NCBI GenBank assembly: GCA_963845755.1
Contig: CAWJTV010000020.1
Location: 608,001-672,000 of the forward strand
Direction: 5' to 3'
DNA from: an uncultured Planctomycetota bacterium
Lineage (GTDB): Bacteria; Planctomycetota; Planctomycetia; Isosphaerales; Isosphaeraceae
DNA: 64,000 nt
Shown here: positions 4,398 to 39,364 of the stretch, one piece after another
Layout of the letters: each line of letters begins with the position of its first letter
How positions within the stretch are numbered: position 1 is the first letter of the stretch
Notes under the pieces: model-generated
Database searches by the model: none
The model's input: the letters and a program-made list of their open reading frames with translations, nothing else
Told to the model about the DNA's origin: nothing
Translations under genes and position numbers: made by a program

Positions 4398-4439
4398 TTG
4401 ACAGACTGTCCCTGCTGGCGATATTTGTAGTCATGCGAC
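4398..4439 (+). promoter_or_regulatory. Sigma70-like promoter with overlapping putative BlaI operator, copy 1
   Basis: TTGACA (4398-4403), N14, then GCGATATTTGTAGTCATGCGAC (4418-4439), 30 nt before the blaI ATG. It contains the TGTAGT half-site of BlaI/MecI boxes. Confidence 0.75.
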
Positions 4440-4469
4440 GTGTTCCGTAACCTTAAGGGAAAGTACCTC

Positions 4470-4874
4470 ATGTCTCGCGAGATGCCCGAGCCGTTGACGG
4501 TTGCTGAATGGAAGGTGATGAAGATCGTCTGGCGCCGAAAGAGCTGCTCCGCGAGGGACGTGTACGAGGAAGCCCGTGATGCCCACGGGTGGGCCCCGAC
4601 CACGACGAAGACCTTGTTGCGCCGGCTGGTAGAGAAGCGACATCTCGTCGTGACCCCCGTCGGGACGAGCTATCTCTATCGGCCGGCGCGGCCGGCCTGG
4701 CCTTCGCTCGCCGGCGCGGCCGACACGCTTCTGGACAACACCCTCGAAGGCATGGACGGTAAACTGTTAGCCTACATGGTGAAGAAGAGCCGTCTGACTC
4801 CGGACGACCTGGCACAGTTGCGTTCGGTTCTCGATGAACATCTCGTCGCCGAAGGCGGAGAGCCTGAGCCATGA
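4470..4874 (+). CDS. blaI: BlaI/MecI/CopY-family winged-helix repressor
   Basis: LTVAEWKVMKIVW...WAPTTTKTLLRRLVEK...YLYRP; the stop overlaps the start of an M56 peptidase gene (ATGA). Confidence 0.92.
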   Translation: MSREMPEPLTVAEWKVMKIVWRRKSCSARDVYEEARDAHGWAPTTTKTLLRRLVEKRHLVVTPVGTSYLYRPARPAWPSLAGAADTLLDNTLEGMDGKLLAYMVKKSRLTPDDLAQLRSVLDEHLVAEGGEPEP

Positions 4875-7800
4875 ACCCGGTTGACTTGCTGAACGCCTGG
4901 GGTGCATCCTGGTTCGGCTTCATGTCGCGAGCCCTGATCGATGCCTCCTTGCTCCTGGCTGTGATCCTGGTCGTCTGGCTGCCCATGCGACGCCGGGTGT
5001 CGGCCCAGCTCGCCCACGGGCTGTTCTGCCTGGTGCTCCTGAAACTGATCGTCCCCGTACCGGTCGAGTGGTCCTGGTGGCAGTCGTTGACTCGGTCTCG
5101 ACCGGCTGCGCCCGCACCGCCGGCTGTGGTTAACGCCGAGCCGCTCGCTCGGATCATCCTTCCGACGACGGGTGACGTGGGTGCCAATCTGGTGGACGCC
5201 TCGGTACTCGAGCCGGTCGCGATCGTGGAGCCGGCCCAGGATGCCACGCAGAGCGGAGTCATGGCCGGTTCTTCGGCGAAGACCGCGCGGCTTGCACTTT
5301 CGCTCCAGGCCTGGTTGATGCTGGGTTGGGCCTCGATCGTCGTGCTGCTGCTGGCGCGGTTCCTGCGGGCCACGCGGACCACGCGCCGGCTGATACGCGA
5401 GGCGGTCCCCCTTCGCCCGGAATGGTTGCCGATCGACGTCCAGGCGCTGCCGAGTGCCCTGGGACTTCGGCGCCCGTGCGGTGGGCCATCAGCCACCAGC
5501 TCAACTCGCCCGCCGTCGGCGGCCTGGTTCGCGCCGCCGTGATCATCCCTCCCGACCTCAGCGATAGCCTCACACCCAAGCAATTGACCTGGGTCCTGCT
5601 CCACGAGCTGGCCCACGTGCGCCGTGGCGACCTGTGGGTCGTCATGGTTCAGCGGGTCGTGCAGGCGGTCTTCTTCTTCCACCCGGCGGTCCACCTCGCC
5701 AACTGGATCATCGACGAACTGCGCGAATATGCCTGCGACGACGTGGCCCTGGCCGCCTGCAAGACATCGCGGCGCGTCTGCGGTGAAGGATTCCTGGCGA
5801 TCGTCGAGCGGTCCGTCGAGCCGGTCCCGGCAGCCGTCCCGGTGCTGGGACTCTTCGACTCGCGATTGCTGATCCGCCGTCGGCTGATCCGTATCCTCGA
5901 CAATAGCCGCACGGTCCATGCCCGGCTCTCGCCCGGCGCGGCACTGGGCCTGTTGCTCCTGGCCCTGGTCGTGTTGCCGTTCGGTCGGCCGCGGGATGTC
6001 TCCGCGGCTCCCGACGCGCGCCTCCGCGCCCTGGAGGACCAGGCTCTCGCGACTCGGAACTTGACGATCGACCGCGACGAACCTACGAGTTATCGGCCCG
6101 GAGCCGTCTGGCATCGACAGCGCGAGGCGGGGCAAGTCCGCGTTGACCTCGGCGGCGAATCCCCGGGGCCCGAGTCCCGCTCGGTGGTCCTGGCCCTGGC
6201 GTATTCGCCGGATGGATCGACCCTGGCCTCGGCAGGCGACGATTCCGTGGTGCTGTTGCGAGATGTGGCCTCCGGCCGGATGATCGGCCGGCTCGAAGGG
6301 CACCGCGACGCCATCTCGTCCCTGACCTTCTCGCCCGACGGCAAGACGCTCGCCACCGCCAGCTACGACCACACATTGAAGCTCTGGGACGTGGCTTCGG
6401 GCCGGGCGAAAGCCACGCTCGAGGGACACACTAACTGGGTCTTCGCGGTGGCTTTCTCACCCGACGGTTCATCGCTAGCCTCGGCCGGTCACGACAAGAC
6501 GGTCCGGATCTGGGACGCCGTCACGGGCCGGGAGACCGCAAGACTGTCCGGACACAGGTCCTCGGTCCGGACCGTGGCCTTCGCGCCCGAGATGGCCGGG
6601 CGCGTGCTGGCCTCCGGCGGGGCGGACCGCACGGTCATCCTTTGGGACCTCCGCACCCAATCGCCTCGCGCACGCCTCGAAGGACACAAGGGCTCGGTCC
6701 GCGCCCTGGCCTTCTCTCCCGATGGCGCTACCGTGGCGACGGGCGGCGAGGATGGTGAGGTCCGGTTATGGGATGAGAATTCCGGTCATGAGCGTGCGAC
6801 CTTGGTGGGACACTCGGACATGGTGACCTGCCTGGCCTTCTCGCCACGGGGCGGCCTTCTCGTCACCGGCAGCCTCGATACCACGCTCAAGGTTTGGGAG
6901 CCCACGGCCGCTCGCGAGCGCGCGTCGCTCCAGGGGCATCGCGACGGGGTGGGGATCTCCGCCCTGGCGTTTGCACCGGATGCCCGGCAGATGGCCACCG
7001 GGGGCTTCGATGGCTCGGTGCGTCTCTGGGAACCCACCGCCCCGATCTTCTCCCCTACCTCTTGTCTGTCTTACCCGGGAGAGGCCCAAAGCCTGGCCTT
7101 CTCGCCCGATGGCCGCTCCTTGCGTGCCGCTGGAGAGGGAGGCATCGCCCGCTGGGACGTCCCCACCGGGGCAACCCTCACTCCGCCGGTAAAGGGCGAG
7201 GCAACCGCCAACACCATCGCCATGGCCCCGGACGGCGCCTACTACGCTACGGGCGGACCAGACGGTCGGATCCGCCTGATCGATGCCCGTTCCGACCAGG
7301 TCCTCGCCACCCTCGTGGGACACGCGGGCAAAGTGCGTACGATCGCATTCTCACCCGATTCCCGATTCCTCGCCTCAGGCGGCCAGGATGGGGCCGTGCA
7401 GCTCTGGGATGCAATCGGCCGGAAACCCTCGCGATTATTGCACGCTCGGGGGCTCCCGGTAACGACCGTCCAGTTTTCACCCGATGGCCGGACACTCGCC
7501 GCCTCGACCGGCGATGATCGCGACGCTTCCTCGGGCGAGGTCCGTCTCTGGGATCTCGCCAACCGAAAAATGCTGGGCTCTCTCGGGGGACCGGGGCATG
7601 GCATGACTCCGATCGCCTTCTCGCCCGACGGAAAGAGCATCGTCTCGTCGGGCTCGGACGGAGTTGTCCGGTTCTGGAACGTGGCGACCCGGGCACCCCG
7701 TCAGGCCTTGAAGTACAGTGAGTGCCACTCGCTCGCCTTCTCGCCCGACGGCCGATGGCTGGCCTCTGCCCACGTCGGCGGCGATGTGGTCCTCTGGGAT

Positions 7801-38266: not shown

Positions 38267-38331
38267 CGAAATTCTTCGGGAGGTCGTTTTCCCCGGTCGC
38301 GACCCACCATTAGAGACCCACTCCCACGGAA

Positions 38332-39249
38332 TCAAGGGAAGTCCTCCGGCGAATCGCTTTTCCGTTGGATCGCATCGTTGCTGTGATAGATCTCGTTCTC
38401 CCTTCCGAGCGTCCGAGGACCCGAGAAGACCTCGTGGTTTTCGATCCGGACGTGGATTTCCATGTCGGTGAACCGAGCGATCGCATATTCCCAGTGCGCC
38501 GCCTTCCCCTCGCCATGCAGTTCGAGGAGGAGGAACGCCTCGGGATCGGTCCCCTGGACCAGGGTGAAGAGCGCACCGTCCTGCTTCTCCTCTCGATAGA
38601 GAGGCTGGATCAGAGGCCGCAAGGGCCAGGTTGAGCCCTTATCGTCAACCGTGTTCGCCGAGAACTCGCGGAGAATCGCCCGCATCTGGCGCAAGCGTGC
38701 CGGGGCGGTGTCGGCCGGCGCGGGGGCGTTGGGGATCGGTTTGAAGGTCACTCCGGGCTGCGACGTACGCCCCACGGTCCGGTCCCGCCAGGTTACCTCG
38801 ATCGGCTCTGTCGTCAGGGAGTGCCGTTCGTGGAGGATGACGCGGCGGCCATCGGGCCATTTGTACGTGAAGAAACTCACGACCGCGACCGGCCGCCCCT
38901 CGCGCACCCAGAGGTAGAGCGCACCATCGTCGCCGCCCCGGACCGGTTGCGACCAGCGCAAGAGGGGCTCGGGGAGCATCCGAGCGTCCTCCTTGCCGTC
39001 GGGTCCGATGCGGACCGCGTGTTCCCGCGCATGCCGCTGGAAAAGCGGGAACCATTTCCCTTTGACGTCCTTCGCCGTCGGGCTGGATTCCTGACCGTAT
39101 CCGCGCGGCGAGGTTGCAATCCACCCCGCCTCCATCAGGAACCCGGATAGGATCATCGCGCCGAACCGTACGGAAATCGCAGACATGGCCCTGGCGACCC
39201 GCGACGAAACGTCGGCGAAACTGAAAATCGGGATCTTCGCGCTCTTCAT
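38332..39249 (-). CDS. Unnamed exported family, paralog P15 (start at 39249 or 39186)
   Basis: PLLRWSQP, DGALYLWVREGRP, HERHSL, RLRQMRAILREF, LRPLIQPLYR, DGALFTLVQGTDPE. Confidence 0.85.
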   Translation of the reverse strand: MKSAKIPIFSFADVSSRVARAMSAISVRFGAMILSGFLMEAGWIATSPRGYGQESSPTAKDVKGKWFPLFQRHAREHAVRIGPDGKEDARMLPEPLLRWSQPVRGGDDGALYLWVREGRPVAVVSFFTYKWPDGRRVILHERHSLTTEPIEVTWRDRTVGRTSQPGVTFKPIPNAPAPADTAPARLRQMRAILREFSANTVDDKGSTWPLRPLIQPLYREEKQDGALFTLVQGTDPEAFLLLELHGEGKAAHWEYAIARFTDMEIHVRIENHEVFSGPRTLGRENEIYHSNDAIQRKSDSPEDFP

Positions 39250-39322
39250 GATCGATTGACCGGCCTTCGGCTGGCCCCACCGCCTCGATCCGAGGGGCAA
39301 ATCAGGATAGATTACGAACCAA

Positions 39323-39364
39323 GTCGTATGACTACAAATATCGCTGATGTACGACGCTTGTCAA
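39323..39364 (-). promoter_or_regulatory. Promoter with putative BlaI operator, copy 3
   Basis: Minus strand reads TTGACA-N14-GCGATATTTGTAGTCATACGAC, upstream of P15. Confidence 0.75.

Follow-up and report, generated by a model that had tools for sequence, protein, structure and literature searches.

We analysed a 64,000-nt stretch of a soil planctomycete genome, hereafter the window (G000:C20:608001-672000; the source genome, G000, comprises 14.27 Mb in 49 contigs at ~65% G+C), and all coordinates below are positions within it. Positions 4398 to 39364 hold a conserved planctomycete gene cluster, probably of the cell envelope and, to judge from how related records are named, Isosphaerales-like. 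In it, many copies of an exported protein family, here called P, stand among regulatory and membrane genes. We consider it probable, with moderate confidence, that the cluster has three layers: a Bat-like MoxR/VWA core interleaved with P genes, BlaI-type autoregulated control, and a signal received by a WD40-M56 protein. A sequence-only reading of the window had proposed that an extracytoplasmic signal sensed by WD40 propellers induces a periplasmic protein set together with its assembly machinery. That interpretation stood in part, the regulon and the recurrent neighbourhood being the elements borne out.

Gene content was established from the open reading frame (ORF) listing and from profile scans (Pfam, NCBIfam, and PADLOC) of the window ORFs. 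P copies were located with a hidden Markov model (HMM) built from a 12-sequence alignment. The genes formed two convergent strings. The plus string, which ended at 15753, contained blaI, M56-WD40, PSCyt2/PSD1, DUF1501, EF-hand, P1, and P2. The minus string ran from 39364 to 16099 in the order P15, P14, P13, a legumain-fold gene, six P genes plus one remnant, MoxR, DUF58, P, BatA/VWA, DUF4175-like, VWA-GATase1-like, P, and P, with three P genes within or behind the MoxR module. Gaps were at most 137 nt on the plus string as far as the EF-hand gene and mostly 6-160 nt on the minus string, where three were of ~300-430 nt. The 15-copy family and the partner genes claimed for the two strings were found in the claimed content and order, with small corrections, and the convergence placed at ~15.9 kb lies between 15753 and 16099. 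For the minus string the claimed gene set was right, but the legumain-fold gene lies within the array and not behind it. The features were as follows (position weight matrix abbreviated as PWM, transmembrane as TM).

4398..4455 (+): promoter/operator block before blaI; TTGACA at 4398-4403, ATATTT at 4421-4426, conserved block to 4455, PWM score 61.3
4440..4874 (+): blaI, Penicillinase_R repressor (PF03965, E 2.4e-26); likely ATG at 4470 behind an AAGGGA ribosome-binding site
4871..8919 (+): M56 peptidase (HEXXH) fused to ~3 WD40 propellers (PF05569, E 1.1e-25); two frames, one base missing near 5469
8950..10419 (+): PSCyt2 (DUF1549) / PSD1 (DUF1553) protein (profile match)
10556..11956 (+): DUF1501 protein (E 2e-112)
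11953..13658 (+): EF-hand protein in two frames (indel near 13234)
13655..14746 (+): P1, with Tat-like TRRSFLAM signal; true start probably near 13853 (alignment and P HMM)
14869..15753 (+): P2, with Tat-like signal (alignment and P HMM)
16099..17046 (-): P copy split over three frames (P HMM)
17194..18057 (-): P copy (alignment and P HMM)
18125..20819 (-): membrane VWA plus GATase1-like protein in three frames; a single gene in relatives
20928..24374 (-): DUF4175-like membrane coiled-coil protein, 1148 aa (PF13779, E 3.6e-8)
24687..26637 (-): BatA-type protein with N-terminal double-TM, VWA, and C-terminal TM; N-terminus in another frame (TIGR02226, 25.1 bits, above cut-off)
26717..27540 (-): P copy with its own ATG, in-frame with DUF58 through a 2-nt indel (P HMM)
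27560..28453 (-): DUF58, VWA-like (PF01882, E 1.1e-46)
28460..29503 (-): MoxR AAA+ ATPase, AAA_3 plus AAA_lid_2 (PF07726, E 4.8e-61)
29612..30414 (-): P copy, C-terminus in another frame (P HMM)
30468..31280 (-): P copy (alignment and P HMM)
31356..31517 (-): P remnant, HMM positions 177-231 only (P HMM)
31710..32654 (-): P copy (alignment and P HMM)
32602..33450 (-): P copy used for the structure model (alignment and P HMM)
33490..34377 (-): P copy (alignment and P HMM)
34443..35312 (-): P copy (alignment and P HMM)
35326..36297 (-): exported legumain/caspase-fold protein, 323 aa, with DxDxDG calcium loops; His kept, no Cys at the nucleophile loop
36311..37249 (-): P13 (alignment and P HMM)
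37171..38225 (-): P14, split over two frames (P HMM)
38210..38267 (-): promoter/operator block before P14, PWM score 68.0
38332..39300 (-): P15, likely ATG at 39249 (alignment and P HMM)
39307..39364 (-): promoter/operator block before P15; TTGACA at 39364-39359, PWM score 69.3

The P HMM recovered 15 loci in the window, of which 11 were uninterrupted, three were frame-split (HMM spans 16099-16869, 29612-30285, and 37384-38075), and one was a C-terminal remnant of ~55 aa; one family is indeed common to both strings. It detected 13 further loci elsewhere in the genome. The alignment (~250 residues) had a mean column identity of 37% with 20 invariant columns, and the window paralogues were 27-65% identical. 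Inspection of the translations revealed a hydrophobic signal-like N-terminal segment in every copy, which in P1 and P2 included the twin-arginine-like TRRSFLAM and in the other copies was a plain hydrophobic signal. A profile search of 1.84 billion representatives yielded 3857 P clusters at 50% identity with E ≤ 1e-3, 1646 of them with E ≤ 1e-30, and nearly all were single-domain proteins of 265-310 aa. Among 90 listed public homologues, the best match was of P1/P2 type for 41 and of P15 type for 38. The few named sources were "hypothetical protein" entries from Isosphaeraceae and Pirellulaceae metagenome-assembled genomes (MAGs), and the nearest ESM Atlas clusters were unnamed planctomycete "hypothetical proteins" (score 0.94, recognition low). 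An AlphaFold2 model based on 55 sequences (predicted local distance difference test, pLDDT, 89; predicted template-modelling score 0.83) consisted of one long helix followed by a beta-sandwich. The family had no match in Pfam, NCBIfam, or PADLOC, and being large, confidently folded and without a profile there, it merits a family entry.

A tree of 63 near-full-length P copies from 10 loci resolved position-specific orthologue groups. P15 grouped with the second array gene of four loci from other genomes (L035, L036, L037, and L038), and P13 grouped with their third. Recent duplicates within the window were few (3-4), namely 30468/31710/32602 and 33490 with 34443. Because of these orthologue groups and the scarcity of recent duplicates, we read the array from the tree as an old, conserved set of paralogue types. 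The earlier description of a "diversified" protein set, as far as it implied fast diversification, did not survive this comparison.

We examined P loci with their flanks in 13 genomes. P genes stood together with the MoxR module and/or the legumain-fold gene in 10 of them (G000, G001, G008, G417, and L035-L040). A MoxR gene was in view, with P genes within or directly against the module, in eight of those 10; in L037, the contig ends behind the legumain-fold gene. The legumain-fold gene was in or beside the array in nine of the 10, with none seen in L040. The slots occupied by P differed (MoxR-P-DUF58, DUF58-P-BatA, and BatA-P-DUF4175), and all three were occupied in L038 and L040. Likewise, the PSCyt2-DUF1501-EF-hand trio had two arrangements: in G417 and L040 it shared the strand of MoxR and immediately preceded that gene, and in G000 and G008 the orientation was convergent. 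Such variety of slot and strand speaks for the linkage being under selection.

G001 and G008 kept the array, the 323-aa legumain-fold gene, and the whole string from MoxR to the GATase1-like gene, and G008 also kept the convergent string of EF-hand, DUF1501, PSCyt2, and M56. G417, which belongs to another family of the class (f4), carried PSCyt2, DUF1501, EF-hand, MoxR, P, DUF58, BatA, DUF4175-like, VWA, and GATase1-like genes on one strand, plus a convergent P gene and a divergent legumain-fold homologue. P arrays were found beside partner genes in all six public loci (MAGs assigned to Isosphaeraceae (two), Singulisphaera sp., Planctomycetota (two), and Planctomycetaceae), which were identified with a P15-type alignment and are hence biased towards P15 orthologues. 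In L039, a BlaI-M56 pair with WD40-like sequence lay inside the cluster. The recurrence predicted for Planctomycetota, with P beside MoxR/DUF58/VWA, DUF1501/PSCyt2, and BlaI/M56, was in this way found in other genomes. Family P was present in four of 41 relatives (G000, G001 of the same genus, G008, and G012), all larger than 10 Mb, and in at least four of 401 genomes of the phylum sample, a lower bound as only six candidates per genome were scored.

Within the module itself, MoxR matched AAA_3 with 204.8 bits and was followed by DUF58 after a 6-nt gap. The BatA-type protein matched TIGR02226 with 25.1 bits against a cut-off of 23.05; its matches to PF07584 (20.5 bits) and VWA_2 (21 bits) were below the Pfam cut-offs. 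A BatC-like tetratricopeptide repeat (TPR) gene was looked for, and no TPR family was among the Pfam matches of the string.

The second line of evidence is a promoter/operator block shared by genes of different kinds. Two TTGACA hexamers begin at positions 4398 and 39364, each opening a block of ~40 bp that consists of TTGACA, 17 nt, ATATTT, and then GTAGTCATACGAC-N5-TCGTAA. One such block precedes blaI and another precedes P15, so the two strings begin with the same promoter motif, as had been noticed before. The 17-mer GCGATATTTGTAGTCAT downstream of the hexamers occurred exactly four times in G000 (before blaI, P15, P14, and a P copy 598 kb away) versus an expectation of ~0.002 (2 x 14.27 Mb / 4^17). 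A PWM scan of G000 added three weaker sites, one before a P gene and two before WD40 genes. The other genomes were scanned with a 22-mer allowing up to three mismatches. In total, the block was found at 33 sites in seven genomes, where it preceded 21 P genes, six blaI-M56 orthologues, three anchored WD40 genes, one BatA paralogue, and two others. G001, G008, and G012 contributed 12 of these sites (nine before P, two before blaI-M56, one before an anchored WD40 gene), and G435, G436, and G437 (the genomes of L035, L036, and L038) contributed 14 (eight before P, three before blaI-M56, one each before the BatA paralogue, a multi-TM protein, and no recognised gene). A reversed-pattern control gave 0 matches in the eight other genomes scanned.

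Weaker block variants at G000 C20:269632, G000 C11:810358, and L025 (G008:C32) preceded TM-anchored single-propeller WD40 genes and had GTG in place of ATA at columns 16-18, the same as before blaI. In L048 (G435:C1:1432653-1435674) and L049 (G436:C4:384137-387158), the block stood before another BatA-type VWA gene outside the cluster and before a gene for a multi-TM protein of no assigned family; both are likely further regulon members. In an alignment of 29 sites, 14 columns were invariant (TTGTAG-C, CG, CGTA) and the -35 and -10 hexamers were kept. As this core is kept while the spacer and both flanks vary, the block is not a repeat element. It stood before the blaI-M56 orthologue in all six genomes with both the motif and an identified orthologue, and in G000, G435, G436, and G437, blaI and the array were convergent and 28-35 kb apart (28-31 kb in the last three). 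A single site common to the regulator operon and to non-homologous targets in six of six genomes points to an autoregulated layout of BlaI type.

The regulator pair was recognisable by profile. BlaI matched PF03965 with 92.8 bits (cut-off 22.6), and the M56 protein, whose gene overlaps blaI by 4 nt, matched PF05569 with 90.9 bits (cut-off 31) and has a HELAH motif in its translation. Its match to the NCBIfam model blaR1_generic was partial (56 bits versus 400). Behind its last hydrophobic segment, the C-terminal 900 residues comprised ~16 detectable WD40 repeats, or about three propellers, and no penicillin-binding (transpeptidase-like) sensor domain was detected there. Owing to this replacement, we regard the pair as a non-canonical BlaIR and not as a beta-lactam sensor. 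The propellers are predicted to be extracytoplasmic from their placement after the last transmembrane segment. The two motif-linked WD40 proteins of G000, which are membrane-anchored with a single propeller, matched the M56-WD40 protein best, self-matches aside, among 158 and 176 WD40 ORFs. The sensor domain of BlaR1 is kin to the beta-lactamases, the enzymes that it induces, and the kinship of the motif-linked WD40 proteins with M56-WD40 parallels this relation. Upstream of blaI and divergent from it (602-3690, minus strand), the window encodes an ECF-type (extracytoplasmic function) sigma factor that has regions 2 and 4 and a long extension at its C-terminus; the next gene encodes a 679-aa WD40/SGL protein. 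We rejected this sigma/WD40 pair as a co-regulator on the grounds that no ECF homologue adjoined blaI in the short flanks of G001 or G008.

The gene at 35326..36297 encodes a 323-aa protein without a Pfam match, C13 and C14 included, and with >1200 homologues at 60-87% identity, one of them named, from Paludisphaera borealis. Its structure model (pLDDT 77) matched legumain in Foldseek (4d3x, E 2.4e-6, probability 1.0, template-modelling score 0.42-0.54), with 112 matches at E ≤ 1e-3 that also included GPI8 and metacaspases. The label "caspase-fold gene" given on sequence grounds proved apt as to fold. By sequence, the profile reached only E 0.18-0.98 against PDB. Clan CD enzymes carry their catalytic Cys in the loop after the fourth strand. 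The corresponding loop of this protein, behind the strand of residues 177-182, read T-[S/P/A]-[A/S]-S-G without Cys in 25 of 25 sequences, the equivalence being judged from the secondary structure of the model and not from residue-level superposition. His144, of the His-Gly after the third strand, was invariant, as were two DxDxDG loops. In our reading, this is an exported, calcium-binding protein of legumain fold that is probably inactive. A complex prediction for its residues 48-300 with P residues 36-282 scored 0.00 and was uninformative either way.

Frame changes break many genes of the window. Near 5469, where the M56 frame changes, G001 and G008 each carry one base more, and a soil-metagenome contig has an extra C behind that position. 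Another contig has an extra C near 13234, where the EF-hand gene changes frame. The in-frame fusion of DUF58 and P (26717-28453) goes back to two nucleotides missing immediately ahead of the TGA at which DUF58 terminates in G001, L035, and L036; the P gene that comes next starts with an ATG and a signal segment of its own. In G001 (C33) and G008 (C28), conserved genes are likewise full of frame breaks. Most frameshifts of the window, including the "DUF58-P fusion", look like assembly indels on these comparisons, and we therefore read the broken genes as intact. The pattern suggests a systematic indel error of these assemblies, at least two breaks (5469 and 13234) being contradicted by other contigs, and such an error would also explain why genomes of 10-14 Mb reach completeness estimates of just 60-88%.

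From these data we propose the following mechanism. The core, which synteny shows, is a Bat-like membrane module interleaved with genes of the exported family P, beside the Cys-less legumain-fold protein and usually with the PSCyt2/PSD1-DUF1501-EF-hand trio. A BlaI-family repressor would bind an operator of ~30 bp, which would overlap a promoter of sigma-70 type and extend downstream of it; its sites would be those of its own blaI-M56 operon, the leading array genes (P15 and P14), some scattered P genes, and the membrane-anchored single-propeller WD40 genes. By analogy with BlaR1, the three propellers would bind an extracytoplasmic ligand, probably a protein or peptide. Binding might then activate the cytoplasmic M56 domain, leading to inactivation of BlaI and derepression of the regulon. 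The blaI promoter (serving blaI, M56-WD40, and possibly the genes from PSCyt2 to P2) and the promoters of P15 and P14 would then become more active. Judging by their signals, P proteins would be exported by Sec (general secretion) and P1/P2 by Tat (twin-arginine translocation).

Once exported, P proteins may assist the VWA proteins that face the periplasm, whether as accessory or adaptor subunits, or may be their clients; this is the weakest step of the proposal. We suggest it because P genes are embedded among the module genes and because the VWA domain of a BatA-type protein faces the periplasm in Borrelia (PMC5700661). A more specific version is tentative and, on balance, doubtful: an envelope system in which a BlaR-like protease senses a protein or peptide cue with periplasmic WD40 propellers and releases a regulon of sensor-like WD40 "decoys" and about ten conserved P types, the P proteins docking on the periplasmic VWA domains of a Bat-type MoxR machine along with a dead-legumain scaffold so as to remodel or repair the envelope. 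If true, it would provide the first functional context for family P, the Bat operon, and the PSCyt2/DUF1501 pairs.

A number of observations weigh against the three-layer reading. Despite the presence of the cluster, no motif was found in G417, G438, and G439 (the genomes of L039 and L040 among them). The control by BlaI/M56 that had been proposed for the whole cluster was upheld in one respect, as the block joins blaI to P genes in six genomes, but not in another, as no motif stands directly before MoxR. Since the G417 and L040 clusters contain P and MoxR with neither the motif nor blaI in the stretch examined, BlaI control looks like a lineage-specific layer. We infer BlaI as the binder of the block from the position of the sites only. 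Coupling of the genes from MoxR to GATase1-like to the P15 and P14 promoters would be possible only via read-through, and co-transcription of the MoxR genes over ~10 kb is assumed only from short gaps. A scan for terminators and promoter consensus over 15.7-35.6 kb gave counts no higher than in shuffles (12 versus 11.7 for terminators), so operon limits are not shown by it. The sequencing runs that matched the stretch were one soil DNA run (0.15 share of words) and two runs of the same study, and no RNA run was among them. The M56 frameshift, if real, would mean a dead sensor in G000; the relatives and the soil contig argue for an assembly error.

The role of P and the independence of the counts bear on the reading in the same direction. 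For P, the role proposed is a guess: Foldseek returned no PDB match for the model at E ≤ 1e-3, and the best VIA-align score (Z 7.0, to glycoside hydrolase/lyase beta-sandwich domains and the periplasmic P1 domain of YidC) is within the chance range stated for the tool. For these two reasons, we did not assign P to a fold family. The 13 other P loci of G000 had no BlaI, M56, MoxR, DUF58, or BatA homologue within 15 kb; two were near PSCyt2/DUF1501 pairs, but G000 contains 80 PSCyt2/PSD1 and 103 DUF1501 ORFs. Single P copies in G132 and G321 had no partner within 10 kb, and two P loci of G012 likewise lacked one. Scattering without enrichment, by which the sequence-only reading would have fallen, therefore describes the 13 additional G000 copies and does not describe the arrays. 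Finally, the array-bearing genomes are kin and their counts are not independent, so the proportion of 10 in 13 is not a statistic.

We also considered other explanations of the block and of the cluster. The block could be a promoter plus leader recognised by a different DNA-binding regulator or by an RNA factor acting on the 5' untranslated region, with BlaI/M56 merely a member of the regulon. If transcription starts ~7 nt after ATATTT, GTAGTCATACGAC-N5-TCGTAA falls in the transcript, and the short inverted repeat TACGA-N6-TCGTA within the block could form a hairpin. Moreover, the block is not obviously like the staphylococcal BlaI/MecI operators, which we take to be of TACA/TGTA type, and G000 encodes 13 BlaI-like and 20 M56-like ORFs, which leaves room for another regulator to be paired with the site. 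However, none of the five hairpin pairs showed a compensatory change, 17 of 145 cells were unpaired, and the block had no Rfam match. We rejected the RNA version for lack of covariation and of an Rfam match, both of which favour recognition of the sequence itself. With the block before orthologous blaI-M56 genes in six of six genomes, a classic autoregulatory layout, we judge a different regulator to be unlikely. Alternatively, the P arrays might be conflict-type periplasmic inhibitors or immunity proteins directed against outside enzymes or toxins, with WD40 proteins detecting the attacker and MoxR just a neighbour. Tandem exported paralogues of 27-65% identity, sensor-like WD40 proteins in the regulon that could be decoys, and the patchiness of the family across the phylum (at least 4/401) would fit this view. 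It is nevertheless improbable in our estimation: the paralogues form position-specific orthologues and not lineage-specific bursts, with only 3-4 recent duplicates; PADLOC gave no matches, and Pfam revealed no toxin or secretion genes in the string; and mere neighbourhood hardly accounts for P genes between MoxR, DUF58, BatA, and DUF4175 in different genomes.

The cluster might also be no functional system at all, only unrelated and highly paralogous planctomycete families kept together by descent in a few close relatives. Their expansion in G000 (13 BlaI, 20 M56, 80 PSCyt2/PSD1, 103 DUF1501, and 23 MoxR ORFs), the relatedness of most array genomes, and the scattered P genes without such neighbours would be expected in that case. 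Against it, the gene set recurs after rearrangement (strand of the trio, P slots, blaI inside the L039 cluster) and in another family of the class (G417), and one cis-element joins non-homologous blaI, P, WD40, and BatA-paralogue genes in seven genomes. This explanation is already disfavoured, and we rate its chances as very slim. Least credible, to the point of being negligible, is the identification of the locus with a MoxR-vWA-beta-propeller ternary conflict system (Kaur, Burroughs, Iyer, Aravind, eLife 2020). The locus does bring MoxR, vWA, WD40 propellers, and a caspase fold into one neighbourhood, and MoxR also matches PF20030 (bpMoxR; 41.7 bits, E 9e-11). However, the propellers are on the M56 protease, with no propeller match by Pfam in any VWA ORF of the string; a classical AAA_3 MoxR followed by DUF58 and BatA is a Bat-type layout; and the caspase-fold protein is without the Cys.

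Outside the cluster, the window contains further large genes. Just beyond P15 and divergent from it (39743-41554, plus strand), there is a gene for a 603-aa protein that begins with a signal-like segment, continues with a long stretch rich in Pro, Thr, and Ala, and has no Pfam match in its C-terminal part. It is followed on the minus strand (41527-54731) by large overlapping ORFs of 765, 348, 473, 345, 1439, and 1347 aa with right-handed beta-helix/NosD repeats, probably one or two giant exported beta-helix proteins split by assembly indels. Two neighbouring eCIS_core proteins (PF13699, E 5e-22 and 4e-26) and then a GNAT acetyltransferase are encoded at 59383-62822 (plus strand).

No description of the cluster or of family P was found in the literature searched, which had subscription journals outside its scope. 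As in BlaI/BlaR1, MecI/MecR1, and CenIR, a Penicillinase_R repressor gene lies upstream of, and overlaps, a gene for an HEXXH M56 protein, and, as in BlaIR systems, the same site precedes the regulator operon and target genes, here by position. Unlike in those systems, the sensor is formed by about three WD40 propellers instead of a penicillin-binding domain, and the targets comprise WD40 proteins and the arrayed members of an unnamed family. The operator also differs from the TACA/TGTA type that we presume for BlaI and MecI. PMC13492132 describes BlaIR pairs without a penicillin-binding domain as common and indeed the majority of the family, and as able to control exported envelope proteins (CenIR of Clostridioides difficile), which the targets here resemble. 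WD40 is not among the nine M56 architectures with at least 100 entries given there (PMC13492132). Almost none of these pairs has a known regulon or signal; at this locus, a regulon with a WD40 sensor has been defined computationally.

The module resembles Bat-type operons, of which Rhizobium RL3499-RL3502 is reportedly an envelope example. With Borrelia BB0170-BB0176 (PMC5700661), it shares an AAA_3 MoxR, DUF58, and BatA-like double-TM and VWA membrane proteins, with the envelope as presumed site of action. Unlike these operons, it is interleaved with 1-7 P genes, is joined to the Cys-less legumain-fold protein and the PSCyt2/PSD1-DUF1501-EF-hand trio, and includes DUF4175-like and VWA-GATase1-like proteins, with no TPR gene of BatC type seen. 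The legumain-fold protein in turn shares with legumain, GPI8, and metacaspases (clan CD) the fold and the His-Gly after the third strand, and differs from them by the Cys-less nucleophile loop, two added DxDxDG calcium-type loops, and the absence of a C13/C14 match. The ternary systems, which according to PMC7159879 occur in planctomycetes and are defined by a vWA protein carrying a ~four-blade beta-propeller, likewise combine MoxR and vWA with propellers and a caspase fold. The locus has no such vWA-propeller fusion and no VMAP, iSTAND, or effector domains as described there, and its layout is of Bat type; lacking the fusion and any VMAP/iSTAND component, it is not a ternary conflict system. 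Bat-type MoxR/VWA operons and PSCyt2/PSD1-DUF1501 pairs are among the most widespread function-unknown gene sets in Planctomycetota, and a conserved, regulated link to one exported family provides an experimental handle on both. Altogether, the locus combines known kinds of system, a BlaIR regulon and a Bat-type MoxR operon, around the sizeable unnamed family P.

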